From Candidatus Falkowbacteria bacterium (GTDB lineage Bacteria > Patescibacteriota > Patescibacteriia > Patescibacteriales > VMTK01), in assembly GCA_043802685.1 (NCBI GenBank), contig JAZDKT010000078.1, forward strand, positions 1 through 41,469: DNA of 41,469 nt, written 5' to 3'. Every line of letters starts with the position of its first letter. Positions within the stretch are counted from its first letter, which is position 1. Positions 6,531 through 38,870 of this stretch are shown here, in pieces. A model generated the notes under the pieces. It saw only the letters and a list, made by a program, of their open reading frames with translations. It was not told the origin of the DNA and ran no database searches. The translations under genes and the position numbers were made by a program.

Positions 6531-6601
6531 TTATGAGTTATGAGTTACGCGTTACGCGTTACGCGTTACGCGTTATGCGTTACGCCTTGCGCGTTACGCG
6601 C
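6531..6601. repeat. tandem heptamer array GTTA(C/T)G(C/A), about 10 units
   Basis: ttatgagttatgagttacgcgttacgcgttacgcgttacgcgttatgcgttacgccttgcgcgttacgcgc. The array overlaps the last codons of prfB (tail ...LRVTRKA). Confidence 0.9.
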
Positions 6602-7677
6602 AAATACGCTTCCATAAACGCTTCCAGATCACCGTCCAATACGCCGTCAACATCTTGAGTTTCATGATTGGTTCTATGGTCCTTAACCATTTTATACGGT
6701 TGCATAACATAAGATCTGATTTGCTTGCCCCACTCCGCTTTTTGCGCCTCGCCGCGCAATTTTAATTCTTCTTTTTCTTTTTCTTCTTCCTGTAATTTAT
6801 ATAATTTTGATTTTAAAATCTTCATAGCCGTTTCCTTATTTTGGTGCTGGGATCTTTCGGTTTGGCAAGAAATGGTTATGTTGGTGGGTTTATGGACTAC
6901 CCTGACGGCGCTGTCGGTGGTATTCACGCTCTGACCGCCCGGACCGGACGAGCGAAAAACATCAATCCGCAAATCTTCATCCTTAATTTCCATTTCCTCG
7001 GCCTCGGGCAATTCAGGAATAACTTCAACTAAAGCAAAAGAAGTGTGGCGCATCGCTTCCGCGTCAAAAGGCGAAATCCTGACCAAGCGATGCACGCCGG
7101 ACTCGCTGCGCAAATACCCGTAAGCCCATCTGCCGGAAATGCTTATGGCCGCGCTTTTTATGCCTGCCTCGCTGCCTGTATTTCTGTCTAAAAGCTCAGC
7201 TTTCCAGCCCTTTTTTTCAGCAAAGCGCAAAAACATCCGCTCCAGAATCTCGGCCCAATCCTGGGCGTCCACTCCGCCAGTGCCGGCATGAATTGATATA
7301 ATCGCGTTATTCTTGTCGTATTTACCGGAAAACAACACAAAAAATTCCAGCTTTTCCAATTGTTTTTTTAACTCACTGTATTTCGCGCGCGCGTCTTCGT
7401 CAATTGAACTGTCTTTTTCGTTTTCCGCCACAGCCACTAATTCTTCCAAATCCCTTATTTCCTTTTTTAAATCTTCCCACCTCTTAACTTCTGATTCCAA
7501 TCCTTCCAGCTTCCGGCCTGTTTCCACGGCGTGCTCGCGATTATTCCAAAAATCCGGCTTGCTTGCTTCCAATTTCAAATTTCCAATTTCAGAAATCTGG
7601 CCGTCAATATCTAAAAGCTCCCAGATGCCCAGGAGCCGTTCTCGCAATTCTTCAATTTGCTTAAGTATGTTTTCCAT
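6580..7677 (-). CDS. prfB: peptide chain release factor 2
   Basis: GGQ motif (SGPGGQSVNTTDSAVR), the RF2-specific SPF tripeptide (RISPFDA), and typical length (365 aa). Encoded in one uninterrupted frame. Confidence 0.9.
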   Translation of the reverse strand: MENILKQIEELRERLLGIWELLDIDGQISEIGNLKLEASKPDFWNNREHAVETGRKLEGLESEVKRWEDLKKEIRDLEELVAVAENEKDSSIDEDARAKYSELKKQLEKLEFFVLFSGKYDKNNAIISIHAGTGGVDAQDWAEILERMFLRFAEKKGWKAELLDRNTGSEAGIKSAAISISGRWAYGYLRSESGVHRLVRISPFDAEAMRHTSFALVEVIPELPEAEEMEIKDEDLRIDVFRSSGPGGQSVNTTDSAVRVVHKPTNITISCQTERSQHQNKETAMKILKSKLYKLQEEEKEKEELKLRGEAQKAEWGKQIRSYVMQPYKMVKDHRTNHETQDVDGVLDGDLEAFMEAYLRVTRKA

Positions 7678-7683
7678 AAAAAT

Positions 7684-7809
7684 ATAATGCTAATCCGCAA
7701 ACTATATGCAAATACCGCAAATTCTAATAATGCGAATTAACATTAATTGGTTATTTGCATAATTCGCAATTTGCGGTATTTGCATCAATTTGTAGATTCG
7801 CATTATTAT
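7684..7809. repeat. intergenic inverted word array (GCGAAT / GCAAAT / CCGCAAA family)
   Basis: The left half (7684-7738) and right half (7761-7809) are imperfect reverse complements. They share the exact 18-mer atgcaaataccgcaaatt. Confidence 0.8.
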
Positions 7810-8756
7810 AACCCGTATTTCTCTATATTCTCATCAGCCAGTTTTTGGATATATTCTATTTGCTGTTTGCCTTCTTCTGCCGCGAATAAATGCTTAAACC
7901 TGCCTTGCGGCTTTAAATATTCTTCCACTTTCATTTTCGGCTGTGGAATTTTCATGGCATTAACCAATTTTCCGTCTACATATTCAACTATCGGATAATG
8001 CCCGGTTTGAGCGGCTAATTTGCCTAATTTAATTGTTTTGTCCGAAACCATTTTCCAGCCCGGAATGCAGGGAACTAAAATCTGAATATAAGCAGGACCG
8101 TCCATAGTCAACGCTTTTTTAACCTTGCTCGTGATGTCGGCTAAATATCCGGTTGTTGTCTGAGCCACATACGGCAAATGGTGCGCCAAAGCGATAGCGA
8201 TCATGTCTTTCTTTCTTTGATGAGAACCGATTGCGTCAATGGTGTTCGCCTTGCCCGCCGGCGTGGTGGTGGTGTTGGCGGCCCATGGAGTGGCTCCGCT
8301 CGCCTGTATCCCTGTATTCATGTACGCTTCATTGTCATAGCAAACATACAAAATATTTTCTCCTCTTTCCCACATGCCTGAAATCAAACCAAAGCCGATG
8401 TCAAAAGTGCCGCCGTCTCCGCCTTGGGCAACAACTTTAACCTCACCCCCGGCCCCTCTCCTTCGCAAGGAGATGGGAGCATGTTTTTTATTATAATCTA
8501 ACGCCGCTCTCACTCCGGATGCGACAGCCGCGGCATTTTCAAATAATGAATGAATCCATGGCACTCCCCATGCGCTTTCCGGATAAGGAGTGGTTGTCAC
8601 TTCCAAGCATCCTGTGGCATTGGCAATTATTGTATTTGGTCCAAGCGCTTCAACAACCGTGCGCGCCGCAATCAACTGCCCGCAGCCGGCGCAAGCCCGA
8701 TGGCCGGGAGCTAATAGTGGTTTTGCGTTAGATTTAATGATTGCTTTATTTGGCAT
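7806..8756 (-). CDS. porB: 2-oxoacid:ferredoxin oxidoreductase beta subunit (TPP-binding)
   Basis: N-terminal GHRACAGCG cysteine motif and the GDGG..DIGF TPP-binding motif, typical of PorB/VorA-type beta subunits. Substrate cannot be told from the sequence. Confidence 0.85.
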   Translation of the reverse strand: MPNKAIIKSNAKPLLAPGHRACAGCGQLIAARTVVEALGPNTIIANATGCLEVTTTPYPESAWGVPWIHSLFENAAAVASGVRAALDYNKKHAPISLRRRGAGGEVKVVAQGGDGGTFDIGFGLISGMWERGENILYVCYDNEAYMNTGIQASGATPWAANTTTTPAGKANTIDAIGSHQRKKDMIAIALAHHLPYVAQTTTGYLADITSKVKKALTMDGPAYIQILVPCIPGWKMVSDKTIKLGKLAAQTGHYPIVEYVDGKLVNAMKIPQPKMKVEEYLKPQGRFKHLFAAEEGKQQIEYIQKLADENIEKYGL

Positions 8757-8796
8757 AAAATAATTAATAATTTGCAGTTAATTTAAAAATTATTTA

Positions 8797-8870
8797 ATTA
8801 ACGAGTTAATGAGTTAGCGAGTTGTTGTTTAAAATTTAATTAACTCGTTAACTCTTGAACTCGTTAACTA
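8797..8870. repeat. intergenic inverted word array (CTCGTTAAC family)
   Basis: ttaacgagttaatgagttagcgagtt (8797-8823) faces ttaactcgttaactcttgaactcgttaacta (8840-8870). Confidence 0.85.
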
Positions 8871-8886
8871 AAAAACTAAATAATTT

Positions 8887-9096
8887 TTAGTTGATTGCCA
8901 TCGCTTGCTTAAATTCCCGGCTTGCTTTTAGTTTATCAAACTGCCCGACAAGCTTGGAAGCGTCCAGTATTTCTATTAAAATCGGCTTATTGCTTTTTGA
9001 TAAATGAATAATAAAATTGCCGAATTCATGGGCATGGCTGATCGGCCCCTTGGATAATTCAATGCTTATGATGTTTGATTCCGGATCGTAGATCAT
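8887..9096 (-). CDS. DUF2283-like small protein (putative antitoxin-like partner)
   Basis: MIYDPESNIISIELSKG....IIHLSKSNKPILIEILDASK matches the YD.E.D.L.I ... G.IEIL.AS pattern of DUF2283. Confidence 0.6.
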   Translation of the reverse strand: MIYDPESNIISIELSKGPISHAHEFGNFIIHLSKSNKPILIEILDASKLVGQFDKLKASREFKQAMAIN

Positions 9097-9104
9097 ATTT
9101 GATG

Positions 9105-9208
9105 TGATGCTAATCTGCGAATAAATGCGAATGCCGCTAATTGCTAATACGCGAATACATAATCATTAGCAATTCGCCAGATTAGCATTTATTCGCAGAT
9201 TAGCATCA
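9105..9208. repeat. perfect 24-bp terminal inverted repeats bracketing a whole intergenic spacer
   Basis: TGATGCTAATCTGCGAATAAATGC (9105-9128) is the exact reverse complement of GCATTTATTCGCAGATTAGCATCA (9185-9208). A nested second inverted pair lies inside (gctaattgctaat / attagcaattcgc). Confidence 0.9.
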
Positions 9209-9424
9209 TGCTTTTACTGGATAAAATGTAATAACTCGCATTACCCCATTATCTTTCTGATAAACCGCCTTAATATCGTCTTTGCGCGCCGCCAAATATT
9301 TTCCTTTCTTGCTGATTTTATCAGGCAACTTAACAACATCCTCTATCTGCTCTTTGGTAAAATAGACTTTATGCTTGTTTAATATATCAAATTTTTGTTC
9401 AGCGTATTTTGTGAAATAGATCAT
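9206..9424 (-). CDS. DUF4258-like small protein (putative toxin-like partner of DUF2283)
   Basis: 72 aa. It begins FTKYAEQKFDILNKHKVYFTKEQIEDVV and ends in a beta-rich C-terminus, lying upstream of a DUF2283-like gene. This pairing is a commonly observed two-gene module. Confidence 0.45.
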   Translation of the reverse strand: MIYFTKYAEQKFDILNKHKVYFTKEQIEDVVKLPDKISKKGKYLAARKDDIKAVYQKDNGVMRVITFYPVKA

Positions 9425-9592
9425 GATGGTATTTTAGATTTATGATTTTAGATTTTGGATTTGATTTTTTTGTTTGTTGGATATTTTTTAATAACCGCGC
9501 GAGCAAGCATTTCAAGCTTTTCTCTGACTTCCTTTGATTTTAAAACTTCATCAAGCATTGCCTCTTCTTCATTAATATCAATTTTTGTATTA

Positions 9593-9937
9593 TTATTTAG
9601 CTCCGGCATACTTTTTCATCTCTTCAGTAATTACATCAATATGATAAGTAATTTCCTTTTTAGAAATATTTGCTTGACTTCCTTTGAAGTATAAAGCAAC
9701 AGGTGTTATTAAATTATCTATTTCTACTAATAAAATAATTAACCTAAAACCGCCACTTTTACCTTTGCGTAGATCAGAAGATTTTAATCTTATTTTATAC
9801 ACATGATGGCCAAGATTTATAGCATTATTCTTATCAAACATCTTTAAAGAATTAATGACATCATTTAATAGATTTTTGTGTTTTCTAAAATACGATTTGA
9901 TTTGCTTTTTAAAATGGCTGGATATTAAAATCGTCAT
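9593..9937 (-). CDS. RelE/ParE-superfamily toxin-like protein
   Basis: VYKIRLKSSDLRKGKSGGFRLIILL is the K.R......KGKSGG.R.I motif of RelE/Gp49-type toxins. It sits 3 nt after a small RHH-like ORF. Confidence 0.5.
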   Translation of the reverse strand: MTILISSHFKKQIKSYFRKHKNLLNDVINSLKMFDKNNAINLGHHVYKIRLKSSDLRKGKSGGFRLIILLVEIDNLITPVALYFKGSQANISKKEITYHIDVITEEMKKYAGAK

Positions 9938-9939
9938 GG

Positions 9940-10197
9940 TTATTTTAAGTCAGCAAATTGCTCCTCCACTGAAGGAAGTTTTTTGCCACCATAAATTTGA
10001 TGGATAGTTTTGCTAAGTTTTTGAGCTGACTGCGCGAATTTTTCTTCCTCATTTAACGCAGGATGTTTTATTTTAGTAACAAGATCCATGGCGGCAAACC
10101 TAAAAAACTCCGCTTTGCTGGCAAAGCCGTATTCTTTAATTGCTTGATTAATTTTTTGTTCCAATGGTTTAGAAACCGCAAAATTTACAATAGACAT
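9940..10197 (-). CDS. ribbon-helix-helix-type antitoxin-like protein
   Basis: 85 aa. N-terminal beta strand plus helices (IVNFAVSKPLEQKINQAIKEYGFASKAEFFRFAAMDLV), immediately upstream of the toxin-like ORF. Confidence 0.45.
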   Translation of the reverse strand: MSIVNFAVSKPLEQKINQAIKEYGFASKAEFFRFAAMDLVTKIKHPALNEEEKFAQSAQKLSKTIHQIYGGKKLPSVEEQFADLK

Positions 10198-10395
10198 ATA
10201 GTTTGTATATAAATTTAATATTAAATCTATATATAATAATAGCAGATATGTTTTTTATGTCAAGATGTAATTTTAACTACACGAATTCATTATAAAAAAG
10301 AATGCGAATCATACAATTCTTCTTTAAAAATAATTCTTGTAGTTCTTGTCTAACTGGCAGAATCCCCTAACGAGAGATTCTGCCGCGGCGAAAAA

Positions 10396-11199
10396 TTATT
10401 TGCACTTTATATTATAAATACTCATAATAGGACCCTCTGCTTTACACTCCCCGCTACAACATTGAATACAACATTGCTTTGTTTCACAATCCCAATTACT
10501 ACTAGTGCTATATGACGATACTCCGCATTCATAATTTGATGATTTGCAATTTTTAATTGCTCCTTTTTCAGAACATTTATCTTCTCCTTCGCCAGAAACA
10601 CAAGTACAAGTTTCGAGTTGTATGTTTCCACAGCTAAACATATGTTCTTGTGTTTCATAATCTAAGTGTTGACTATTTGTACATCCTTGAGCTCCGCTCT
10701 CTTGACTATTATCCTTTACATCCTGTATCGTCGTAATCTTAAAATTCACCAAATCCGGATTAACCGTGTATAGGATAGTATAAGAAGCCAGAGTAAGAAC
10801 AAGCCCGGTTAAGGCCGCGCCGATCCATGACTTGGCATTGCCGATTCTTTCCGCATTTCCTCCGGCGGTAATCCATAAAACTCCGCCAAACATTAAAACA
10901 ACCGCGGCCAAAATTCCGACTATGCCGATAGCGTATTTGTAAATGGCGTTTATGTATTCGCCAATCATTGCCGTTGAATCGCCAACAGTTTTTTGCGTAC
11001 CTTTTTGAAAATCATCGCCTATTCCAACTTGTGGGACAAAATAAACCTTTTTTTCTTCAGCTTGGCTCGGCGCTGGAACAGCTAGCAAAAAAATTAATCC
11101 TGCCAACTGAAGAATAAAAGCCAATAGAAACATTATTGTTAAAATTTTAGAAAATAATTTTTGCATATATTTATTATAAAATTTTAATTGTTTAGTCAA
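10396..11199 (-). CDS. TrbC/VirB2-like (T4SS-type) pilin-like membrane protein with Cys-rich C-terminal extension
   Basis: Signal/TM segment followed by YINAIYKYAIGIVGILAAVVLMFGGVLWITAGGNAERIGNAKSWIGAALTGLVLTLASYTILYTVNP, the two-helix pilin-like core common in CPR genomes. The last ~100 aa contain 14 Cys. Confidence 0.55.
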   Translation of the reverse strand: MTKQLKFYNKYMQKLFSKILTIMFLLAFILQLAGLIFLLAVPAPSQAEEKKVYFVPQVGIGDDFQKGTQKTVGDSTAMIGEYINAIYKYAIGIVGILAAVVLMFGGVLWITAGGNAERIGNAKSWIGAALTGLVLTLASYTILYTVNPDLVNFKITTIQDVKDNSQESGAQGCTNSQHLDYETQEHMFSCGNIQLETCTCVSGEGEDKCSEKGAIKNCKSSNYECGVSSYSTSSNWDCETKQCCIQCCSGECKAEGPIMSIYNIKCK

Positions 11200-11236
11200 T
11201 TCGTTAACTCTTTAACTCGTTAACTCGTTAACTAAA
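11197..11236. repeat. CTCGTTAAC-family word array (direct orientation relative to 8840-8870)
   Basis: caattcgttaactctttaactcgttaactcgttaactaaat. Confidence 0.85.
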
Positions 11237-11252
11237 TAATTTTTTAATTAAT

Positions 11253-12473
11253 TTATCCGACAAACCTAACCCCATCATCACCTTTCTTTACTTCTTTAAT
11301 AATCCTCTCAACCATCTCGCCGGTAATATCCCGCCCGCCCAAGCCGACTATAAAACTTTGAATTTTAGCTTTAATTTTGCCTTGAGCCGCTGATTTAATA
11401 TCAGACGCAAGCGGACCCATCTCACCTAAAGTAATTGCTTTATCTAACACGGCAATATATTTCGCTTTTTTGATTATTTTTACAATTTCATCCGCCGGAA
11501 AAGGACGATAAGACTTTATTTTTAAAACTCCAACCTCACCCCCTACCCCTCTCCTTCGTAAGGAGATGGGAGATTTGTATTTATCAACCGCATCTTTAAT
11601 CGTGCCGACTACCGAACCCATGGCAACTAAAATTATTTTTGGTCTGAATGAACCATAATATTCCACCAAGCCATTGTCAATAATTGTTTTCGTGTTTTCG
11701 TGTTTTCGTGTTTTTGTGTTTTTGTGTTTTTGTGTTTTTGTAATTATTTCATGGTATTTTTTATATTCTTCGTTAATTAAATCTATGCTCGCAGTCAAGT
11801 CATCATGCAGCTCCTGCCTTATTTCCATATAATAAGCAGGCGAGGCAAAAGCGCCCATTGTTACCGGATTGGCCGGATCTAAAAATTGTCCTTTTTTCGG
11901 CTTGTAATCCGGCAAATATTTTTTAATCTGCTCTGCTTCCGGGACAACCACTGAATCATAAGTATGCGTTAAAACAAAACCGTCAACATTAACAATAACC
12001 GGCAGATTTGTCTGCTCTGCTATTTTGTAAGCCATAATATGCTGATCAACCGCTTCCTGGTGATTTTCCGCGAACAGCATAATCCAGCCGGCGTCGCGGA
12101 CAGTCATGGCATCCTGATGGTCGTTCCAGATAGTAATCGGCGCCGACACTCCCCTGTTGGCGCAAGTCATCACAATCGGCAAGCGCATTCCGGCTATGTT
12201 AAACACGACTTCAGCCATTAGCAAAAGCCCCTGCGAGCTGGTCGCGGTATAAACGCGAACTCCCGCGGCGCTGGCGCCTTCAATGATTGAAGCGGCCGCG
12301 AACTCGCTTTCCGCCCGCACATATTCATAATCCGCCTCTCCGTCAGCTTTAAATTTAGCCAAATCTTCCACAATATGAGTCTGCGGCGTAATCGGATAAG
12401 CGGAAATAACCGCCGGCTTTATATTTTTTATGGTTAACGCAATAGCGCGAGATCCTTCTAATATTTGTTTCAT
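11253..12473 (-). CDS. porA: 2-oxoacid:ferredoxin oxidoreductase alpha subunit
   Basis: The N-terminus EGSRAIALTIKNIKPAVISAYPITPQTHIVEDLA and the TATSSQGLLLM motif are typical of PorA/VorB alpha subunits. It carries two in-frame repeat-encoded insertions (see findings). Confidence 0.85.
   Translation of the reverse strand: MKQILEGSRAIALTIKNIKPAVISAYPITPQTHIVEDLAKFKADGEADYEYVRAESEFAAASIIEGASAAGVRVYTATSSQGLLLMAEVVFNIAGMRLPIVMTCANRGVSAPITIWNDHQDAMTVRDAGWIMLFAENHQEAVDQHIMAYKIAEQTNLPVIVNVDGFVLTHTYDSVVVPEAEQIKKYLPDYKPKKGQFLDPANPVTMGAFASPAYYMEIRQELHDDLTASIDLINEEYKKYHEIITKTQKHKNTKTRKHENTKTIIDNGLVEYYGSFRPKIILVAMGSVVGTIKDAVDKYKSPISLRRRGVGGEVGVLKIKSYRPFPADEIVKIIKKAKYIAVLDKAITLGEMGPLASDIKSAAQGKIKAKIQSFIVGLGGRDITGEMVERIIKEVKKGDDGVRFVG
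11685..11741. repeat. tandem 8-mer array (coding-sense ACACAAAA / ACACGAAA) inside porA
   Basis: tgttttcgtgttttcgtgttttcgtgtttttgtgtttttgtgtttttgtgtttttgt encodes ...TKTQKHKNTKTRKHENTKT... Confidence 0.9.
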
Positions 12474-12482
12474 AATTTAATA

Positions 12483-12598
12483 TATAATCCGAATCTACGA
12501 ATTATATCCAAATGCTCCGAATAGCTGCGAATCAAATTAAAGCTATTTGGATAATTCGTATTTGGGGCATTCGGATACATTCGTAAATTCGGATTATA
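12483..12598. repeat. intergenic inverted word array (CCGAAT / ATTCGG family)
   Basis: tataatccgaatctacgaatt... faces ...aattcggattata, with imperfect inverted halves of ~45-58 nt. Confidence 0.8.
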
Positions 12599-12599
12599 C

Positions 12600-12857
12600 T
12601 TATTTTTTATCTAATTCCATCTTAATCGCCTTCACCGGGCATTCTTCGGCGCAGATTCCGCATCCTTTGCAGAAATTATAATCCGTTTTCGGCTTTAAAC
12701 CGTTTTTCCCTGATACCATTTTTATGGCGTTTTCCGGGCAAACCCTTGAGCAGGTACCGCAGCCAATGCATTTTTTAAAATCTGTCCAGGGAATATAGGT
12801 GCGCCAGCCGCCAGTTTTATTATTTACGGTTGAGCTTGGTTTTGCGGTTATGTTCAT
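12600..12857 (-). CDS. porD: 2-oxoacid:ferredoxin oxidoreductase delta subunit (2x[4Fe-4S] ferredoxin)
   Basis: Two CxxCxxCxxxCP motifs (CIGCGTCSRVCP and CKGCGICAEECP). The start is placed at the ATG at 12857 (MNITAKPSS...) because the longer track ORF begins inside the GTTACGC repeat array. Confidence 0.8.
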   Translation of the reverse strand: MNITAKPSSTVNNKTGGWRTYIPWTDFKKCIGCGTCSRVCPENAIKMVSGKNGLKPKTDYNFCKGCGICAEECPVKAIKMELDKK

Positions 12858-12864
12858 ATTCTCT

Positions 12865-12974
12865 CGCGTAACGCGTAACGTGGAACGCATAACGCATTTA
12901 TTAAAAATAATAAAATTCAATACTCTATGCTCTATTATACACTCGTTACGCGTTACGCGTTACGCGTTACGCGA
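12865..12974. repeat. GTTACGC-family inverted arrays flanking an AT-rich loop (porG-porD spacer)
   Basis: cgcgtaacgcgtaacgtggaacgcataacgc (12865-12897) faces ctcgttacgcgttacgcgttacgcgttacgcg (12943-12974). Confidence 0.85.
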
Positions 12975-13604
12975 GTATGCTTTCTTAATCGCTTGAATAT
13001 TTTTATCTGTTATTTCAGCGCCTTTTTCGCCAAACTTCTGCTTGATTGCTTTTTCAAGCGAACTCAAGCTGACTAAACCGGCAACTTTCGCGAACGCTCC
13101 AAGAATAACCGTATTAACCAGATTTTTGCCGATTATTTCAAGAGCGATTTTAGTGGCGTCAATCGGATAAACCCCGCACCTTTTAAGCAGTTTTTCGTAA
13201 TTTCTTTCACTAAAATTTTTATTTTTTTTAGAACTCTGCTTAAAAGGTGCGGGGTAAATATTCTTCTCGGGTAAATTAATCCCTTGTTTTTTAATTTCGC
13301 TTTTTGTCTTTGCCGTATTGATTATAACTAAAGTATTTTTATCGCAGCCATGCGCGACATCAATCGTATCAAGCAAGGTTGAATCTTGTATTATTAAAAC
13401 ATTCGGATGATAAACATGCTCGCGCGTTCTAATCGGCTTGTCGTCTATTCTGGCGTACGCTTCAATCGGCGCGCCTGTTCTTTCCACGCCAAAAGAAGGA
13501 AATGCCTGCGCCTGCTTTCCGTCGTTAAAAGCCGCTATCGCGATGAGTTCCGCCGCGGTAACAACGCCTTGACCCCCGCGGCCGTGTATGCGTATTTGGA
13601 ACAT
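12960..13604 (-). CDS. porG: 2-oxoacid:ferredoxin oxidoreductase gamma subunit
   Basis: The N-terminus MFQIRIHGRGGQGVVTAAELIAIAAF is typical of PorG. It contains an in-frame palindromic insertion at 13172-13254. Confidence 0.85.
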   Translation of the reverse strand: MFQIRIHGRGGQGVVTAAELIAIAAFNDGKQAQAFPSFGVERTGAPIEAYARIDDKPIRTREHVYHPNVLIIQDSTLLDTIDVAHGCDKNTLVIINTAKTKSEIKKQGINLPEKNIYPAPFKQSSKKNKNFSERNYEKLLKRCGVYPIDATKIALEIIGKNLVNTVILGAFAKVAGLVSLSSLEKAIKQKFGEKGAEITDKNIQAIKKAYSRNA

Positions 13605-13641
13605 AGTTTTTATGAAAATATGAAATAATGAAAATATGAAA

Positions 13642-14043
13642 TTATTTTATATAAACCTTATTTTGATTTTGCAAAAAATTAATATACCCGTTGATTTTCC
13701 ATTCTGTCTTTTTGCCTAATTCATAAAGTTCTTTAAATTCTTCCGCGCTAATATAACTTTGATCTTTAGCCGTATATAAATGATCAATAGTTTCTAATGT
13801 TGATCCTCTGGAAATTCTACAAAATTGTATATTCTCCTGAAAATTATATCTACCATATCCTTCGGCAATATTTGCAGTAATTGAAATAGCAGACCTTTTT
13901 ATTTGTTGAGTTAAACAAAACTTTTCTTCATTTGGAAATTTTTTACTAATTATGTAAATTTTATTTTTAAACTCTCTTCCTGTTTGCCATGCCCCAATGT
14001 TTTCAAAGGATTTGTATTGATTTAATTTTATGGTTTGTTCCAT
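13642..14043 (-). CDS. four-helix-bundle protein (23S rRNA intervening-sequence protein family)
   Basis: The pattern F..E.....Q.+RSA.SI.ANIAEGYGR.......F..I+.GS..E....L is characteristic of this family. Confidence 0.75.
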   Translation of the reverse strand: MEQTIKLNQYKSFENIGAWQTGREFKNKIYIISKKFPNEEKFCLTQQIKRSAISITANIAEGYGRYNFQENIQFCRISRGSTLETIDHLYTAKDQSYISAEEFKELYELGKKTEWKINGYINFLQNQNKVYIK

Positions 14044-14150
14044 ATAATTATAAAAATACGAGAATATAAAAATATTTAAAATAATTTTTTAGATTTATTT
14101 TCTTAATTTATAGATATTTTCATAATCTTGTATTTTCATAATTTCATATT

Positions 14151-14843
14151 CTAGTATTCTCGTATCAACTCCTCCACCACCCCCGCGAACACCTCATACG
14201 GTATATCCCCTTTAACCATATATCCATTTATAAACCATGTCGGCGTGCCTGCGACTCCCAGCTTCTCTCCTTCGGCGTAATCTTTTTGAATTTGCGCGGC
14301 GTATTTATCGCTATCCAAACATTGGCTGAATTTAACAGTGTCAGCGCCGATTTGCTTGGCTAATCCAACCAGCTGATCCTTGGCCGCGCCTTGATTTTGA
14401 AAAAGTTTATCGTGCATCAGCCAAAATAATCCCTGCTCCCCGGCGCATCTGCCTGCCATGGCCAAGCTCAAAGACTCTTCATGCATTGGATAATCCCTAA
14501 AAATTATTTTTACGTCATCTTTATGCTTAACGCTTATTTCTCTTATTTTGGAAAAAGAATTTTTACAGTAAGAACAAGCAAAATCGGCAAATTCCACGAT
14601 TGTTACTTTCGGCTTGGCGGAACCGATCCAATAATTGCCATCGCCTTCCGCGGAATATTGCTTGCCGTTGATAACTGATTGGCTTAAAATATTCCGGTTA
14701 GCCGGCTCCCCGCTTTTTATTTTTCGCGCAACATCAAATACATAAAACCCGGAAGCGACAATAAGCGATAAGATAAAAATCGCGAAAATAATCAATAAAA
14801 TGCCCCACCATTTTTTATACCAAAATTTATTAGTTTTCAACAT
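14151..14843 (-). CDS. membrane-anchored DsbA-like thiol:disulfide oxidoreductase
   Basis: N-terminal TM anchor and the thioredoxin-fold CxxC site FADFACSYCKNS, with the DsbA-like downstream pattern GTPTWFING. Confidence 0.75.
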   Translation of the reverse strand: MLKTNKFWYKKWWGILLIIFAIFILSLIVASGFYVFDVARKIKSGEPANRNILSQSVINGKQYSAEGDGNYWIGSAKPKVTIVEFADFACSYCKNSFSKIREISVKHKDDVKIIFRDYPMHEESLSLAMAGRCAGEQGLFWLMHDKLFQNQGAAKDQLVGLAKQIGADTVKFSQCLDSDKYAAQIQKDYAEGEKLGVAGTPTWFINGYMVKGDIPYEVFAGVVEELIREY

Positions 14844-14880
14844 TGATAAATTATGATTTTTAGATTATGATATAAATAGA

Positions 14881-15009
14881 TTATAATGCGAATCCGCAAA
14901 TTTATGCAAATACTACAAATTACGAATTACGCAAATAATTAATTAGCTAATTCGCATTATTAGAATTCGCAGCATTCGTATATAATTTGTAGATTCGCAT
15001 TATTATAAT
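14881..15009. repeat. intergenic inverted word array (GCGAAT family)
   Basis: ttataatgcgaatccgcaaattt... faces ...aatttgtagattcgcattattataa. The 25-mer aatttgtagattcgcattattataa is identical to the one at about 7789-7811. Confidence 0.85.
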
Positions 15010-15197: not shown

Positions 15198-15635
15198 TTG
15201 GACACATTCGGGCAAGCCGCAGAAGAGATGAAAAAAATATTCCCTTCCGCGCCTGCTATTATTAGCAAGGGCGATTATGCTAGCAAAAAAGCATGGGGGC
15301 TGTTAGCCAGCATAGATCTTTATGAATGCGACCCCAAACTGATTAAAAGCCCAAAGGCGATAAAAAAATTTGTCGTTGAGCTTTGCGAGGTTATTAAAAT
15401 GAAAAGGCATGGCGATCCTTTAATAGAGCGCTTTGCCGAAGGATTATTGGAGGGGTATTCCATGATACAATTCATAGAAACATCTTCAATCACGGCGCAT
15501 TTTGACGAAGAAAAAAACAGGGCGTTCGTAGACATTTTCAGCTGCAAGTATTTTAACGCGAAACAAGCCATGAAATTTTGCCAAAAATTTTTTAAGGCAA
15601 GCGGCTATAAAATACAAACTTTAATTAGAGACTAA
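15198..15635 (+). CDS. S-adenosylmethionine decarboxylase-like (AdoMet_dc fold) protein
   Basis: LLASIDLYECDPKLI...GYSMIQFIETSSITAHFDEEKNRAFVDIFSCK parallels the prokaryotic AdoMetDC pattern (dlygC ... ESH.s.HT.PE ... .D.f.C). Start uncertain: TTG at 15198 or ATG at 15228. Confidence 0.5.
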   Translation: MDTFGQAAEEMKKIFPSAPAIISKGDYASKKAWGLLASIDLYECDPKLIKSPKAIKKFVVELCEVIKMKRHGDPLIERFAEGLLEGYSMIQFIETSSITAHFDEEKNRAFVDIFSCKYFNAKQAMKFCQKFFKASGYKIQTLIRD

Positions 15636-15640
15636 ACTTG

Positions 15641-16087
15641 ATGGCGCTAAAAGAATATCAGGTTAAAAGAAAATTCAATAAAACCACTGAACCAAAAGGA
15701 GAAATTAATAAAAAAAATTTGTCCCGTTTTGCGGTGCAAAAGCATCAGGCGCGAAATCTGCATTATGATTTTCGTTTGGAAATGAACGGCGTTCTTAAGT
15801 CCTGGGCAGTGCCCAAGGGAGTGCCTGAAGCAAGGGGCGTAAAACGGCTGGCTGTGCAGGTTGAAAACCACCCGGTGGATTATATAAATTTTTCCGGCAT
15901 AATACCGGAAGGCGAATACGGAGCCGGCGAAGTCAAGATATGGGACAAAGGAAATTGGAAGCTAATCAGCGGAAGCTTAACAACCGGCAGCATGAAATTT
16001 ATTCTGAATGGTAAAAAATTAAAAGGAGAATACGCGATCTTTCAGCTTAAAGATAATAAAAAAAATTGGCTCATTTTTAAAATTTAA
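15641..16087 (+). CDS. stand-alone LigD-type 3'-phosphoesterase domain protein
   Basis: FAVQKHQARNLHYDFRLEMNGVLKSWAVPKGVP....KRLAVQVENHPVDY..F.G.IPEGEYGAGEVKIWD is the LigD PE-domain signature. Confidence 0.8.
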   Translation: MALKEYQVKRKFNKTTEPKGEINKKNLSRFAVQKHQARNLHYDFRLEMNGVLKSWAVPKGVPEARGVKRLAVQVENHPVDYINFSGIIPEGEYGAGEVKIWDKGNWKLISGSLTTGSMKFILNGKKLKGEYAIFQLKDNKKNWLIFKI

Positions 16088-16162
16088 AGAATATAGGAAT
16101 TAAGCTTTTGAATACTAAATTTTTAAAGCCATTGTTTTGTCTATTTGGAAAATCCCTGCAGA

Positions 16163-16232
16163 CATTGTTAAATTGTTACATTGTTAAATTGCTAACATTA
16201 AAACAATTTAACAATTTAGCAATGTAACAATT
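16163..16232. repeat. intergenic inverted word array (AATTGTTA family)
   Basis: cattgttaaattgttacattgttaaattgctaac faces aatttaacaatttagcaatgtaacaatt. The same words recur at 20855-20882. Confidence 0.8.
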
Positions 16233-16390
16233 CAGATATTAATATAAGCGATAGCTGTATATGTAAAATGTGTATAAATTATATTCAAACGCGTAATTCC
16301 TAAAACTAATAAAATAATTTTAACGCTCGATACATATCTCGGGCGTTTGCTTTTTAAACGGCTTTGGGCTAAAATATAGTATATGAATAA

Positions 16391-16482
16391 CGAATTAGGA
16401 ATTAGGAATTATGGTTTTTAAAATTGTAATTTATTGTTTTATTATCCATAATTCCTAATTCATAATTCATAATTCATAATTC
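16391..16482. repeat. intergenic inverted word array (GAATTAG / CATAATT family)
   Basis: cgaattaggaattaggaattatgg faces ccataattcctaattcataattcataattcataattc. Confidence 0.85.
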
Positions 16483-16490
16483 AAAAACTA

Positions 16491-17501: not shown

Positions 17502-17727
17502 ATGTAATGCGAACCTTTTAATAATATAGAAACTTATAGAAACTTGCTCCTCGCTGTCGCTCGTCGCGAAATTTATAGAAACTTAATCGCAGTTTGCCAA
17601 GTAGCTATTTAATTTCCATAAGTTTCGCTCCGAAGCGAAGCTGAGGAGTAAATTTCTATTAGTTTCTTTTGAATATTCGCAATTAGCTGGTTAACATTTA
17701 TTTGCAGATTAGCATTATATTATTTGT

Positions 17728-20700
17728 ATGGATAACTACAACCACCAAAAAATTGAAAAAAAGTGGGCGGAAAAATGGGTTAAGGATAAAACTTTTACGC
17801 CGGATCTGAAAAAAGCCAAAAATCCTTATTACGCGCTGTTTATGTTCCCCTACCCCAGCGCGGAGGGTTTGCATATCGGCAATTTTTACGCGTTTACTTG
17901 CGTGGATGTGATGGCGAAATATAAAAAATTGCAGGGCAAAGATGTATTTGAGCCGATCGGCTTTGACGCTTTTGGCATGCACAGCGAGAATTACGCCTTG
18001 AAAATTAACGAAACCCCGAGAAAAATGCTTAACCGAACCATAGCTAATTTTAGGAACCAGCTAAGCTCGGCCGGATTGGGATGCGATTGGACGCGTGAAG
18101 TGGATACGACAGATCCTGAATATTATAAATGGACTCAGTGGATATTTGCCAAGCTTTTTGAAAAAGGCCTGGCTTACCAAAAAGAAGCTCTGCTGAACTG
18201 GTGTCCGGGCTGTAAAACAGTCCTGGCTGACGAGCAGATTGAAAACGGGGTCTGCGAAAGATGCAAAACCGCTCCGGAAAAAAAGATCATGAAGCAATGG
18301 TTTTTTAGAATAACCGCTTACGCCCAGCGCCTGCTTGACGGCCTGGAAACAATGGACTGGTCGGATATTACCAAGCACGCGCAGAGGAATTGGATTGGGA
18401 GATCGGAAGGAGCGATGATTAAGTTTGAAGTAAGAAGTAAGAAGTTAGAAGTAAAAAAAATCATTGAAGTCTTTACTACTCGCCCGGATACTTTATTTGG
18501 GGCGACTTATTTTGTCATGTCTCCGGAACATCCTCTTGTTGAAAAGATAACTTCTCCCGAGCAAAAAAAAGAAGTGGAAAAATACATTAAAAAAACAGGG
18601 GCAAAATCCGACCTTGAGCGCGCTGAAGCCAAAGAAAAAACAGGAGTATTTACCGGCGCTTACGCCGTGAATCCGGTAAACAATGAAAAAATTCCTGTCT
18701 GGATCGCTGATTATGTCTTAATGGGCTATGGCACCGGCGCGATTATGGCAGTGCCGGCGCATGACGAGCGGGATTTTGAATTTGCCAAGAAATATGGTTT
18801 GCCGATAAGGCAGGTTGTGGCGGGAAAAACACAAAAACACAAAAACACAAAAACACAAAAACACTGTTTAATTATTCATGGTTCACCGCGGTGTGACAAA
18901 AGTAAAGATACGGATTATACACCCGATAATATAAAGCACTGGCTTGGCTGGTTAAAGAAAAGATTAGAAAATAATAATTATAAGGTATATAATCCGCAAA
19001 TGCCGACTCCGTGGGAGCCGGATTATCAGGAATGGAAAAAACAAATTGATAAATTAGATATTAACGAAAATTCTGTGATTGTTGGCCATAGCGCTGGCGG
19101 CGCGTTTGCTGTTCGCTGGTTGAGTGAAAATAAGAAAAAAATTGACAAATTAATACTTATTGCAGCCGGCAAGACTATTACAGATGATAATAAGAGATTG
19201 CATAATTTTTATGATTTTAAAATTAATCAAAATATAAAAAATAGAGTTAATAAAATAATTATTTTTGTTTCCGAAGATGAAAAAAAATATAGAATAGCAA
19301 GCGCTAAATTATATCAAAAAGAATTGGGCGGTGAATTGCAGATATTAAAAGATAGAGGACATTTCACTGTTGCAGCTAGCCCAATCAATAAAGAGTTTCC
19401 AGAATTATTAGAAGAAATTCTAAAACAAGAATGTTTTGCCGGCGATGGCATAAACATAAACTCTGATTTTTTAAACGGCTTAACAACTAAAGAAGCAAAA
19501 GAAAAAATAATTCAATGGCTGGAGGAAAATGAACTGGGCAAAGGAACTGTGAATTATAAATTGCGCGACTGGTGCATTAGCCGGCAAAGATACTGGGGTC
19601 CGCCTGTGCCGATTGTTTACTGTAATAAATGCGGGGTTCAAGCCGTGCCTGAAAAAGATTTGCCGGTGGAGCTGCCTGAGATGGAAAAGGGCTGGGAGCC
19701 GGCCGGAGACGGACGCGGACCGCTGGCCAAAGTAAATAAATTTATGAAAACCACTTGCCCGAAATGCGGCGGTCCGGCCGAACGCGAGCCGGATGTAATG
19801 GATAATTTTTTAGATTCTGCATGGTATTACTTCCGCTATATTTCTCCGCGCGACAACAAAAACATATTTGATAAAAAATTAAGCAAAAAATGGCTGCCGG
19901 TGGATCTGTATGTCGGCGGCAACGAACACGCAGTACTTCATCTGATGTACACCCGCTTTATCGCCATGGCTTTTCATGATCTTGGTTTAATTGATTTTGA
20001 CAATCCTTTTAAAAAATTCCGAGCCAACGGCATGATCCTGAAAGACGGCAAAAAAATGAGCAAGTCAAAAGGCAATGTCGTCAGCCCGGAAGAATACGGC
20101 GCCAAAGTCGGCTATGACGCGCTAAAAACTTATCTTTTATTTTTGGGGCCGTTGAATGAAGACCGATCATTTAGCGATGCGGGCGTGCAAGGCGCCAAGC
20201 GCTGGATGGAGAGGATAGATCGGCTTAAAGAAAAAATTCACCCCGTTAAATATGTATCGCCCCGTGAAACCGCTTCGTGGCAACGGGGCAAACTTGACGG
20301 CGGTCTTAAACTACCGTCTGTAGCTAATTCATTTAACGGGGTAAAGAATAATTATGAAGATGATAAAAAAATAATAAAAAAACTGCATCAAACCATTAAA
20401 GCGGTAACAGACGATTTTGAAGATCAAAAATACAACACGGCAGTGGCTCGCCTGATGGAGCTTACCAACAGCTTGAGCGCGGAAAAAAATATTTCCGGTA
20501 AAACTTGGGAAAAATTCTTAATTCTTATCGCTCCTTTCGCGCCTGCCTTAGCCGAAGAGCTGTGGTCCTCCTTCGCTAAAGCTACGGCGGATGAAAGCAA
20601 AAAATGCAAACAGTCAATTTTCAATCAAAGGTGGCCGAAACATAATCCTAAATTAATTAAAGACGATATTATTAATCTTGTGATTCAAATCAACGGCAAA

Positions 20701-20856
20701 TTGCGCGATACTATTGAGGCGCCAATTAATATAAGCGAGAAAGAAGCGCAAAAAATCGCTTTGGAGAGTGATAAGATTAAAAAGTGGACGAACGGCAAAA
20801 AAATTATTAAAGTGATATTTGTTAAGGGGAAACTAGTGAATATTGTAATAAAATAA
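17728..20856 (+). CDS. leuS: leucyl-tRNA synthetase with several insertions, including an alpha/beta-hydrolase domain
   Basis: HIGN (HIGH-type) motif, CP1 editing-domain TTRPDTLFGATY, YKLRDWCISRQRYWG, and KMSKS (KMSKSKGN). At 1042 aa it is about 200 aa longer than typical bacterial LeuRS. Confidence 0.92.
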   Translation: MDNYNHQKIEKKWAEKWVKDKTFTPDLKKAKNPYYALFMFPYPSAEGLHIGNFYAFTCVDVMAKYKKLQGKDVFEPIGFDAFGMHSENYALKINETPRKMLNRTIANFRNQLSSAGLGCDWTREVDTTDPEYYKWTQWIFAKLFEKGLAYQKEALLNWCPGCKTVLADEQIENGVCERCKTAPEKKIMKQWFFRITAYAQRLLDGLETMDWSDITKHAQRNWIGRSEGAMIKFEVRSKKLEVKKIIEVFTTRPDTLFGATYFVMSPEHPLVEKITSPEQKKEVEKYIKKTGAKSDLERAEAKEKTGVFTGAYAVNPVNNEKIPVWIADYVLMGYGTGAIMAVPAHDERDFEFAKKYGLPIRQVVAGKTQKHKNTKTQKHCLIIHGSPRCDKSKDTDYTPDNIKHWLGWLKKRLENNNYKVYNPQMPTPWEPDYQEWKKQIDKLDINENSVIVGHSAGGAFAVRWLSENKKKIDKLILIAAGKTITDDNKRLHNFYDFKINQNIKNRVNKIIIFVSEDEKKYRIASAKLYQKELGGELQILKDRGHFTVAASPINKEFPELLEEILKQECFAGDGININSDFLNGLTTKEAKEKIIQWLEENELGKGTVNYKLRDWCISRQRYWGPPVPIVYCNKCGVQAVPEKDLPVELPEMEKGWEPAGDGRGPLAKVNKFMKTTCPKCGGPAEREPDVMDNFLDSAWYYFRYISPRDNKNIFDKKLSKKWLPVDLYVGGNEHAVLHLMYTRFIAMAFHDLGLIDFDNPFKKFRANGMILKDGKKMSKSKGNVVSPEEYGAKVGYDALKTYLLFLGPLNEDRSFSDAGVQGAKRWMERIDRLKEKIHPVKYVSPRETASWQRGKLDGGLKLPSVANSFNGVKNNYEDDKKIIKKLHQTIKAVTDDFEDQKYNTAVARLMELTNSLSAEKNISGKTWEKFLILIAPFAPALAEELWSSFAKATADESKKCKQSIFNQRWPKHNPKLIKDDIINLVIQINGKLRDTIEAPINISEKEAQKIALESDKIKKWTNGKKIIKVIFVKGKLVNIVIK
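18826..18864. repeat. tandem 8-mer array ACACAAAA inside leuS
   Basis: aaaacacaaaaacacaaaaacacaaaaacacaaaaacac encodes ...KTQKHKNTKTQKH... Confidence 0.9.
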
Positions 20857-20903
20857 ATTGTTAAATTGCTCAATTGTTAAGCGGAGAAGATTTTGAAAAA
20901 CAA

Positions 20904-22115: not shown

Positions 22116-22116
22116 A

Positions 22117-22292
22117 TCGCATAACGCATAACTCGTAACGCATAACGACCTGTCTTATTAACTCACCTGACACGCAAACTTTACAATACTTTACTTTAAA
22201 AAAATTTATTAGTTTTTAAATACAATAATTAGAAGCTTTAATTCCACAACTCGTTACGCGTTATGCGTTATGCGTTATGCGTTATGCGTTAC
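22117..22292. repeat. GTTACGC/GTTATGC-family inverted arrays flanking an AT-rich spacer
   Basis: cgcataacgcataactcgtaacgcataacg (about 22117-22148) faces ctcgttacgcgttatgcgttatgcgttatgcgttatgcgttac (about 22250-22292). Confidence 0.85.
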
Positions 22293-23429
22293 TTCAACGG
22301 CAATTTATCCCAAGGTTTTGTCGCCTTGTTTTCCGGCAGAATGATCCAATTCGCCGCCGGCGGCTTGATTGGCTTGTTTCTGCCGATTTTTTTATTAACC
22401 AAGCTAAACTATCAAGTTGAATATGTATTTTTGTATTATATCGCCGGCCATGTAATTTATCTCTTAATCCTGCCGATAGGGGCTCAGCTTTTAAATAAAA
22501 TAGGCCTGCGCCGCTCCCTTCGGCTTAGCGTGATTATGGACGGGGCGTTTTATACCTGCCTCTTCTTTTTGGACAAAAATCCTAATCTATTTTTAATATT
22601 ATCCGTGGTTGCCTTAACTTTTTCTCGCATGCTGTTTTGGCTGCCTTTTCATACTGATTTCGCCAAGTTCACGGACAAGCGTAACAGAGGCAAGGAAGTA
22701 AGCTTGATTTGGGCTACTCACTCGTTCTTAAGCGTACTTATGCCGATAGCCGCCGGATTTTTAATAATGCGGTTTGATTTTGACATAGTTTTTGTTATCG
22801 CGATAATTCTTTACTTATCAGCCGGCATCCCGTTTTTAGCGCTTCCCAGAACACACGAGAGTTTTAGCTGGGGAATTTTGGAAACCTGGAAAAAATATTT
22901 TGCGAAAGAGAATAGAAAGCTTATTCTCGCGAACACGGCCAATGGCGCGGAAAGCTCTGTCGGACTGATTATATGGCCTATTTTTATTTGGCAAATATTT
23001 AACGGCAATTACTTGGAAGTTGGCGCGATATCATCATTAATCATCTTTGTTTCTATTATTCTTCAACTAATCGCGGGGAAATATACCGATCTTTTTAATA
23101 AAAGAAAGATGCTGCATTGGGGAACCGCGCTATACGCCATTGGCTGGCTGGGAAAAATATTCGTCTTAACGGCATCTCAAGTTTTTTTTATCGGAACATA
23201 CCATGTTTTCACGAAAATTTTCAAAGACACGCCTTTTGATACATTAAATTATGAAATGATGGCTGACCGCGGACATTATGTTGATGAATATACTGTTTTA
23301 AAAGAAATAGCCGTTCAAATGGGAAAAATACTGATGCTGATTTTTGCCATTTTAGTGGCTTTAAACTTCGGGCTTAACTGGACTTTCGCCTTGGCGGCCG
23401 TTGCCTCGCTTTTTATTAATTTGATGTAA
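22263..23429 (+). CDS. MFS-type multi-pass transporter, substrate unknown
   Basis: About 12 hydrophobic segments. Start uncertain (22263, 22284 or 22341): the first two ATGs are provided by the GTTATGC repeat array itself. Confidence 0.55.
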   Translation: MRYALCVMRYFNGNLSQGFVALFSGRMIQFAAGGLIGLFLPIFLLTKLNYQVEYVFLYYIAGHVIYLLILPIGAQLLNKIGLRRSLRLSVIMDGAFYTCLFFLDKNPNLFLILSVVALTFSRMLFWLPFHTDFAKFTDKRNRGKEVSLIWATHSFLSVLMPIAAGFLIMRFDFDIVFVIAIILYLSAGIPFLALPRTHESFSWGILETWKKYFAKENRKLILANTANGAESSVGLIIWPIFIWQIFNGNYLEVGAISSLIIFVSIILQLIAGKYTDLFNKRKMLHWGTALYAIGWLGKIFVLTASQVFFIGTYHVFTKIFKDTPFDTLNYEMMADRGHYVDEYTVLKEIAVQMGKILMLIFAILVALNFGLNWTFALAAVASLFINLM

Positions 23430-23544
23430 ACACTCAAATCTACAAATAGCACTCAAATCTACGAATGCAATGCAAATCTACAAATAAAAACTCGCGCTTA
23501 AAAATAGCAAACGAGTTTTACAAAGCAAAATGTCGCTTTAAATA

Positions 23545-38838: not shown

Positions 38839-38870
38839 AAAGCTTTTATTATAAATATTTTAATATTTTT

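Follow-up and report, generated by a model that had tools for sequence, protein, structure and literature searches.

The locus

The stretch of DNA considered here (the window, 41,469 nucleotides) is contig C78 of an 892-kb assembly, G000, which comprises 117 contigs, has 38% G+C and is 86% complete; the relatives of the window are Candidatus Falkowbacteria and other Patescibacteria. Between about 6.5 and 23.5 kb it holds a run of housekeeping genes: prfB, porB, porA, porD, porG, a gene of family PF05635 and dsbA, followed in this order by genes for AdoMetDC, LigD_N, a CNNM/CBS protein, leucyl-tRNA synthetase (LeuRS), RtcB and a major facilitator superfamily (MFS) transporter. A RelE-like gene and a T4SS-pilin-like gene lie between porB and porA. 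The spacers between these genes are largely built of short words of 7-8 nucleotides (nt), repeated in tandem and commonly arranged as two inverted halves. These word arrays are probably the arms of small foldback insertion cassettes of the rRNA intervening-sequence type, accompanied by miniature derivatives. The elements look like poorly known selfish DNA, not like terminators made on the spot.

Word arrays and inverted symmetry

An initial annotation, made from the sequence alone, had described arrays of several word families in nearly every spacer between 6531 and 23500. Tandem Repeats Finder (TRF) recovers arrays at the places so described, including most of the named families, whereas the GCGAAT, GCAAAT and CCGAAT words, being degenerate, lack the regularity that the program requires. 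The 25-mer AATTTGTAGATTCGCATTATTATAA, reported as shared by two loci, is present exactly twice, at 7787 and 14984, and is absent from shuffled sequence. Translation also bears out the gene ends said to be donated by arrays: LRVTRKA, SRNA and ELIREY directly precede the stop codons of prfB, porG and dsbA, respectively, and the MFS reading frame starts with MRYALCVMRY. The array period of 7-10 nt and the lack of constant-length unique spacers agree with the statement that these are not clustered regularly interspaced short palindromic repeats (CRISPR), and no Rfam match is found in the window. The feature is not confined to 6531-23500, being present throughout all 117 contigs.

The inverted symmetry reported for the spacers is far above chance. 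A stem is present in 11 of the 17 window spacers between 6.5 and 23.5 kb, and two further spacers (12921-12959 and 13605-13641) contain one arm of a larger hairpin. Four spacers (9425-9592, 11200-11252, 20857-20873 and 23430-23544) contain a direct array alone or no array at all. On folding, the window stems measure 25-45 bp, with small loops and no T-tract. Folding stability is expressed as a z-score (z) relative to dinucleotide shuffles, with length-matched coding segments as controls. It ranges from -7.6 to -9.9 for the window spacers 7678-7805, 8757-8886, 9097-9205 and 12474-12599, and genome-wide it lies below -3 in 45% of 498 spacers, as compared with 4% of the coding controls. The inverted-repeat finder scores G·T and A·C mismatches equally and is consequently strand-blind. 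Applied to the genome, it assigns a stem score of at least 30 to 295 of 602 spacers (33 of 602 when shuffled) and a score of at least 40 to 184 (1 of 602 when shuffled); the stems have a median of 33 Watson-Crick pairs and their loops a median of 13 nt.

The arms of these stems are frequently periodic. Strong periodicity is seen in 69 of the 227 arms that measure 24 nt or more, with a period of 7 nt in 40 and of 8 nt in 23; shuffled arms include 6 strongly periodic cases, none at period 7 or 8. Across all contigs there are 869 arrays of period 6-10, of which 490 are intergenic, while intergenic DNA makes up 14.6% of the genome. The genome array counts are 508 for period 7 and 372 for period 8, and 227 distinct canonical repeat units occur. 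The units of neighbouring arrays are inverted in 89 cases and direct in 18.

Gene-carrying cassettes

PF05635 encodes a four-helix-bundle protein homologous to Avd of diversity-generating retroelements (PMC10053308). The window protein matches PF05635 with E = 1e-32, as well as TIGR02436 and the PDB entry 2GSC (E = 9e-13), which is the structure of Xanthomonas S23p with five chains (homopentamer). The genome contains eight PF05635 genes, seven of them complete, and all seven complete genes lie between inverted word arrays, with flank scores of 35-55. Inverted flanks of equal strength are found at 33 of 736 other testable genes (Fisher p = 8e-10), most of which have a complete hairpin on either side, both hairpins belonging to the same family. 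For four of the seven PF05635 genes, neither flank holds a hairpin that is complete in itself, so that the gene itself is the loop. An accessory role of these genes in a diversity-generating retroelement was considered and rejected, since the flanking open reading frames (ORFs) are unrelated at the loci examined and the sole reverse transcriptase hit of the genome lies on contig C3. The genome also encodes RNase III.

Each of the seven cassettes has a different word, namely TAAATAG, TATGAAAA (the window), GCRTAAC, ATTAGTTA, ATTGCTAA, GAAACTAATG and ATTTTAG. The period of the arms is 7-10 nt and the median copy number 4.3 (interquartile range 3.8-4.9), and the PF05635 proteins of the genome share 15-39% pairwise identity. 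Two GCRTAAC cassettes, located at different loci with different flanks, have arms of 9 and 19 units and proteins that are 97% identical. The array and, after it, the first 42-72 nt of the four-helix-bundle ORF are retained in no fewer than eight GCRTAAC elements that lack the gene. All eight PF05635 loci are bordered by protein-coding ORFs, and none lies in 23S rRNA. PF05635 genes picked from two relatives are likewise armed with inverted heptamers, one of these relatives being without a Y1 transposase hit.

Dispersed families

Most elements recur elsewhere in the genome. A match to another spacer is found for 415 of 581 spacers, and the fraction of bases with a further copy is 40% in intergenic and 7% in coding DNA. 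Across many loci, elements of 110-220 nt can be aligned from end to end at 80-98% identity. The family F1, of ~120 nt, aligns full-length at no fewer than 22 loci with sharp borders and unrelated flanks; no consistent target-site duplication is seen at 22 F1 borders. Of 25 genomes from the order, 14 contain F1, among them genomes of other families. Paired positions of F1 covary (G-C, U-A, C-G), and a single base change recurs in all words and both arms of a copy, giving the subfamilies GCRAAT, TCAAAT and CCGAAT. The word pattern in F1 looks like concerted evolution within the element. In a chimeric copy at C80:4544-4660, the left arm has GCGAAT words and the right arm the complement of CCGAAT, with G-G mismatches as a result, which suggests recombination between subfamilies.

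A second loop gene is associated with F1. On contig C109, a GxxExxY gene (TIGR04256) is situated exactly between two F1 halves, and the arrangement recurs in a genome of another family (G009:C6). Among the 25 relatives, GxxExxY is present in 11 of 14 F1-positive and 1 of 11 F1-negative genomes (p = 8e-4, phylogeny and assembly fragmentation ignored). A 262-aa ORF at C100:6426-7205 contains two tandem GxxExxY domains and has complete hairpin-family copies (AACTACAGGAATTATTTTTA…) on both sides.

The GCRTAAC family comprises 119 arrays. Its arm order is fixed: GCRTAAC precedes GTTAYGC in 21 neighbouring pairs, and the reverse order occurs in none. The two arms of a pair show no correlation in their number of units (r = -0.06), a single arm reaches up to 25 units, and the inner segments are variable, often with another palindromic family nested inside. 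A GC-richer element of ~100 nt with several hairpins (…CTACCGACTTTCAAGTCGGG…GAGCTAAAGCTCGGTAGAAG…) is also dispersed, at C38:30032-30141 and ~13 other loci, and is also present in the prfB|porB spacer of the close relative L001; it differs in kind from the AT-rich word hairpins, and its orientation is random.

Turnover between strains and relatives

Two close relatives were available for comparison. L092 is a metagenome contig, 98-99% identical to the window in genes and compared over 5 kb; the second, L001/L093, is 89-97% identical. L092 is without a block of ~215 nt (16081-16295) bearing the AATTGTTA hairpin and has no replacement hairpin. It has an additional 136 nt at the AdoMetDC|LigD_N junction, and its ATGAAAATA-type word number differs from that of the window. 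The site of the F1 copy at 14882-15003 is occupied by a AACTAATT-type hairpin in L092 and by an AAATTTC-type hairpin in L001/L093. In L001, a GCTAAT/ATGAAAATA-type element takes the place of the GCRTAAC hairpin at porG|porD, a CCGAAT-type element plus other sequence takes that of F1 at prfB|porB, and the prfB tail has a short seed only, as compared with (GTTACGC)x8 in the window. Some elements are conserved between the window and L001, for example those at 8777-8889 and 12482-12598. The initial annotation had proposed sister genomes as a check on whether word identity is conserved per locus; elements are swapped, gained and lost at several junctions, and the turnover of elements outpaces a sequence divergence of 1-2%.

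The architecture recurs in loci from Falkowbacteria-like genomes, where the words differ from one genome to the next. Among the loci compared, the architecture was not found in distant Patescibacteria or in genomes outside the candidate phyla radiation (CPR). Most relatives have no element at the DsbA|porG junction, and four lineages have divergent PF05635 cassettes there; in other lineages, the PF05635 gene lies on the porD side of porG. Near porG in L020, L023 and L008, PF05635 genes are flanked by their own word arrays. In most of the Patescibacteria loci fetched (L002-L106), DsbA is directly upstream of porG, with gaps of 9 to ~130 nt, so that the two form a conserved gene pair without an obvious functional reason.

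Interpretation and alternative explanations

The elements share an architecture, are dispersed, turn over between strains, are linked to two genes and have deletion derivatives. If the arrays are the arms of foldback cassettes, a full-length copy would consist of ~4-5 copies of a 7-10-nt word, a loop gene and the reverse complement of the word array, with one-sided expansions to 25 copies. The loop gene would be the PF05635/TIGR02436 four-helix bundle ('23S rRNA intervening-sequence protein', an Avd homologue) or, for the GCRAAT family, GxxExxY. Most copies would have become gene-less by gene loss and would persist as spacer hairpins of 50-220 nt, which nest inside one another. Close strains gain, lose and exchange elements at the same junctions, and word number drifts by slippage. 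Insertion would be retained where it is harmless: in intergenic DNA, at gene ends, where the element donates a stop or start codon, and in tolerant protein linkers. The elements may be actively mobile rather than spread by recombination alone, and the loop protein might recognise its own word array. By analogy with rRNA intervening sequences, the 25-45-bp stems may be cut out of transcripts by RNase III, which would explain why operons tolerate the elements.

Several points weigh against this explanation. About 100 of 235 strong stems are singletons in this clustering, the thresholds of which are arbitrary. The words AACGAGTT, AAGAAGT, AAAACACG, AATATTC and AAATTTC are abundant, and no gene-carrying copy of them is present in the 86% complete assembly. 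The gene model rests on greedy ORF calling and is crude, and the co-occurrence tests take neither phylogeny nor assembly fragmentation into account. The strain differences resemble replacements more than simple insertions, and the loci and strains compared show neither an insertion intermediate nor a target-site duplication, nor any cleanly empty site. To our knowledge, four-helix-bundle and GxxExxY proteins are not known as transposases.

A more far-reaching form of the cassette explanation, which is possible but rather doubtful, is that the arrays are recognition sites of the loop protein, and that protein and arms form a self-contained class of mobile elements without a transposase. With 4-5 words per arm and a homopentameric protein, as in 2GSC, one word could be bound per subunit, and each divergent protein would read its own word. 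The binding arrays suggested in the initial annotation may be real in this sense, as sites for a protein that the element encodes. The closeness of the arm median of 4.3 words to the five subunits is suggestive, nothing more. Movement could proceed via a hairpin DNA or RNA intermediate with the help of the host, for example of RNase III, the single reverse transcriptase or a GxxExxY nuclease. Such a class would also take in the rRNA intervening sequences, the intergenic hairpins of CPR genomes and possibly the tandem heptamer repeats known from cyanobacteria and further phyla. Should the loop protein indeed recognise the words of its own cassette, a new mechanism of DNA movement would have been found, together with a natural set of matched protein/7-mer recognition pairs.

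The hairpins could instead belong to a system of repetitive extragenic palindromic (REP) sequences, as REP doublets (REPINs) copied by the genome's single Y1 (HUH) tyrosine transposase, the REP-associated tyrosine transposase (RAYT), acting on single-stranded DNA hairpins. G000 has a RAYT-like gene (C8:2665-3240), which passes the cut-off for PF01797 with 29.8 bits and matches E. coli TnpA-REP (4ER8, E = 4e-4) across the HUH and Tyr motifs, although its NF047646 score of 79 bits is just below the cut-off of 80. Y1 homologues occur in 13 of 14 F1-positive and 4 of 11 F1-negative relatives (p = 0.004, phylogeny ignored). The covarying pairs of F1 and its lack of a visible target-site duplication, which this transposase family would predict, point the same way. 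Transposases of the TnpB and IS630-type DDE (DDE_3) kinds were rejected as mobilisers, being nearly absent from the group in the 25 relatives searched. However, the repeat beside the RAYT-like gene is not a word hairpin but a local, GC-rich direct repeat found nowhere else, and word hairpins are also missing from the flanks of RAYT-like genes in five relatives. Moreover, the relative G005 lacks any Y1 hit and yet has four-helix-bundle cassettes with heptamer arms, and dozens of unrelated word families would have to be served by one RAYT. Copying by a RAYT is consequently regarded as unlikely. On the 5' side of the RAYT-like locus (C8:2665-3360), there are two copies of a 44-nt GC-rich unit (GCTGGACAAGGGTGTCTCACCCTTGGCGTTTGCAGTGCGG) that is unique in the genome.

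It is also conceivable that the hairpins are RNA elements selected by the host, any long intergenic hairpin being kept to terminate, stabilise or segment transcripts in an RNase III or insulator role. Their sequence would then be free to vary, which would explain replacements at fixed sites, such as the three different hairpins, with no empty site, at one position in three close relatives. Hairpins at junctions inside the por operon and beside ribosomal-protein genes fit this explanation, as do the RNase III gene and stems of 25-45 bp, a size suited to RNase III by analogy with the Coxiella intervening sequence (PMC4990558). The palindromes nevertheless behave as DNA-level features, with no sign of a transcript-level role. 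The share of spacers with a stem is 38-41% where the genes are co-directional, 33% where they diverge and 26% where they converge; divergent pairs have hairpins as often as the others do, and convergent pairs are not preferred. Wobbles in co-directional spacers show no sense-strand excess, with 518 G·U in sense RNA and 510 in antisense RNA, and the orientation of five asymmetric families relative to genes is the same in 28 cases and opposite in 21. Intrinsic terminators were rejected, as sites with a stem plus T-tract are not enriched in the region (25 versus 20.9 expected). The lack of T-tracts, the spacer types, the wobbles and the orientation all argue against the terminator or insulator role suggested in the initial annotation, as do the stems within the por operon itself. 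Many related genomes are entirely hairpin-free, with short spacers at the same junctions, and L092 is without the AATTGTTA element and has no substitute for it. Selection by the host is thus quite improbable.

Two further explanations do without any element that moves. In the case of local origin, a chance word would slip into an array, and template switching would turn it into a palindrome, with no transfer between loci. Word number does vary between alleles and arms, the array in the prfB tail appears to have grown from the seed seen in L001, and the same base change affects all words of both arms of an F1 copy. The part of the initial annotation that invoked slippage is accordingly retained for word number (9 versus 19 units in a GTTAYGC arm, a ATGAAAATA-type array that differs between strains, uncorrelated arms), but not the part that invoked local generation, since the families are dispersed. 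Long, sharply bordered elements that align full-length over many loci, a family shared with other families of the order, the fixed arm order and the four-helix-bundle ORF fragments that travel with the arms contradict local origin as a general explanation; it is very improbable, and could still hold for single unpaired arrays, provided that they resemble other loci in nothing but the word. The least credible possibility is an assembly or binning artefact of low-complexity AT-rich DNA. The assembly is fragmented, but the architecture, and partly the same elements, are present in L001/L093, L092, G002, G005 and G009, which are independent assemblies from other projects, and the elements are embedded between intact conserved genes; this argues against an artefact. 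Uptake signals and operator arrays of a single protein were judged unlikely in view of the 227 distinct units and the different words in each related genome.

Relation to known systems

The initial annotation could name no described equivalent, but a described relative exists, namely the S23p-encoding intervening sequences of 23S rRNA (PMC4990558). The Coxiella intervening sequence is a 428-nt selfish element with a 28-bp terminal stem, an S23p (PF05635) ORF and tandem GACAGAT heptamers of strain-variable number, and it is excised from the transcript by RNase III (PMC4990558). The ORF-bearing intervening sequences (Coxiella burnetii, Leptospira, Xanthomonas-type S23p) share with the elements described here the loop-gene family, the terminal stem and the strain-variable tandem heptamers; both are taken as selfish, with no known way of moving. 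They differ in that no element here lies in rRNA, all being located between or at the ends of protein genes, and in that eight gene-carrying copies, hundreds of gene-less miniatures per 0.9 Mb and many unrelated word families are present. RNase III excision belongs to the rRNA system and is an analogy here. In the literature searched, which was incomplete, no published account of such elements in Patescibacteria was found.

REPIN/RAYT systems (Bertels and Rainey 2011, PMC3116915) have in common with the elements dispersed extragenic palindromic doublets, compensatory changes and the absence of a target-site duplication; a RAYT-like gene is present here, and element families span genera and families of the order. 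In contrast to REPINs, the elements do not flank the RAYT-like gene, their arms are tandem word arrays rather than one 25-nt REP, some have cargo genes, and turnover between strains is fast. The Correia/NEMIS elements of Neisseria and the Rickettsia palindromic elements are non-autonomous hairpins of the miniature inverted-repeat transposable element (MITE) type, derived from longer forms. Like them, the elements here are inserted at the junctions between genes and, in frame, within genes, and terminal inverted repeats and internal-deletion derivatives (the GCRTAAC copies with an ORF start, of which there are at least eight, and the F1 halves around the GxxExxY gene) are MITE-like. Unlike in MITEs, neither a parent element with a transposase gene nor a TA duplication was found here, and an internal periodicity of 7-8 nt is not known from the Correia/NEMIS or Rickettsia elements.

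The cyanobacterial short tandemly repeated repetitive (STRR) sequences are tandem heptamer repeats. Intergenic TAACTGA repeats are described from Beggiatoaceae, Cyanobacteria and Bacteroidetes (PMC4679880). Like the arrays here, both are runs of short 7-nt words, mostly intergenic, near start codons, scattered over the genome and of no known function. Their descriptions speak of direct repeats of one or a few words, whereas dozens of words occur here, mostly as inverted pairs and tied to a cargo gene; the arrays may be placed in the STRR class as a description that implies no mechanism.

The elements constitute ~12% of a 'streamlined' genome of 0.9 Mb and 40% of its intergenic DNA. They break assemblies and rewrite gene ends and protein linkers. 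They also join three separate puzzles, namely the rRNA intervening sequences with orphan S23p, the multi-copy 'four helix bundle' and 'GxxExxY' genes, and the tandem heptamer repeats. For the annotation of Patescibacteria genomes, they account for unusual C-terminal tails, wrongly assigned start codons and operons that are split.

Genes and elements of the window

Table 1. Genes and word-built elements between 6.5 and 23.5 kb of the window (dG, folding free energy; a point marks elements without an assigned strand).
Feature	Position	Strand	Evidence and remarks
(GTTACGC)x8 (TRF x8.1 at 6544-6600), unpaired GCRTAAC-family arm	6531-6601	.	TRF, translation; overlaps prfB stop codon
prfB	6580-7677	-	
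F1 palindrome, GCRAAT words, ends ATAATGC...GCATTAT	7682-7806	.	48 Watson-Crick pairs, z = -7.7; fills gap between prfB start and porB stop
porB	7806-8756	-	
TTAACGAGTT-family hairpin, ~12 loci	8777-8889	.	TRF (8798-8869: TTAACGAG / TTAACTCG), folding; conserved in L001
GCTAAT/GCGAAT-word hairpin, related to F1	9105-9208	.	39 Watson-Crick pairs; cluster of 4
Direct (TCGTTAAC)x4.1 array (TRF 11201-11233)	11197-11236	.	Half element of TTAACGAGTT family, without partner arm
porA	11253-12473	-	
(CAAAAACA)x7 array inside porA coding sequence	11685-11741	-	Encodes TKTQKHKNTKTRKHENTKT in variable linker
CCGAAT subfamily of F1, between porD and porA in operon	12482-12598	.	z = -9.9; L001 88.5% identical
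porD	12600-12920	-	
Gene-less GCRTAAC...GTTAYGC hairpin, porG/porD gap	12865-12973	.	TRF CGCGTAA / CGTTACG; dG -54; provides porG stop codon
porG	12960-13604	-	
Full cassette: arms 13611-13645 and 14114-14150 + PF05635 gene	13611-14150	-	Pfam, TIGR02436, PDB 2GSC; TATGAAAA words at 13611-13645 face ATAATTTC at 14114-14148 (TRF); loop holds PF05635/TIGR02436 four-helix-bundle gene and inner hairpin 14044-14150
PF05635 gene	13642-14043	-	
dsbA	14151-14843	-	
Second F1 copy	14882-15003	.	F1 alignment
Composite dispersed element, 224 nt, 7 loci, carries AATTGTTA hairpin (16164-16232)	16087-16310	+	TRF at 16164-16232: ATTGTTAA / AACAATTT
GAATTAG/CATAATT heptamer hairpin	16392-16483	.	36 pairs
Nested palindrome, outer arms GCGAAT/GCTAAT type	17503-17727	.	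dG -74.8; 52 pairs; inner part TATAGAAACTT words around GC-rich core
LeuRS	17728-20856		
(AAAAACAC)x5 array in LeuRS, encodes KTQKHKNTKTQKH	18825-18864	+	Upstream edge of serine-hydrolase insert
Direct (TAAATTGT)x3.4 array between LeuRS and RtcB	20854-20880	.	TRF
GCRTAAC arm 22118-22147, GTTAYGC arm 22252-22291	22118-22291	.	TRF CGCATAA / CGTTATG; arms enclose 106-nt AT-rich inner segment; right arm provides MFS ORF start
Direct 19-nt x2.9 array (CAAATCTAC words)	23431-23486	.	TRF; word makes hairpins at other loci, e.g. C28:13174-13279

The por operon is split by a block of ~2.4 kb between porA and porB (8757-11252), which contains the T4SS-pilin-like gene, a RelE-like pair and small ORFs and is bounded by TTAACGAGTT-family sequences. 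L001 has this block as well, without most of the segment carrying the RelE-like gene. LeuRS has a serine-hydrolase domain (PF06821) inserted behind its editing domain, at residues ~403-550.

Repeats are also found in frame within genes. On the sense strand, the 8-mer CAAAAACA/AAAAACAC makes up in-frame arrays in two unrelated genes, porA and that for LeuRS; they encode KNTKTQKH-type repeats in variable linkers, and 27 + 11 arrays occur genome-wide. A second, unrelated repeat is GC-rich, ~39 nt long and forms a small hairpin. It lies in frame in porB (8441-8480) and porA (11534-11572), encodes PISLRRRGVGGEV and has 18 BLAST hits (high-scoring segment pairs) genome-wide.

The most stable fold of the window is located outside the housekeeping part, in the spacer 38839-39095 (dG -105.7, z = -12.6). 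This spacer adjoins the edge of a gas-vesicle island that is otherwise hairpin-poor, and up to 18 repeats from other parts of the genome match its segment 38854-38983.

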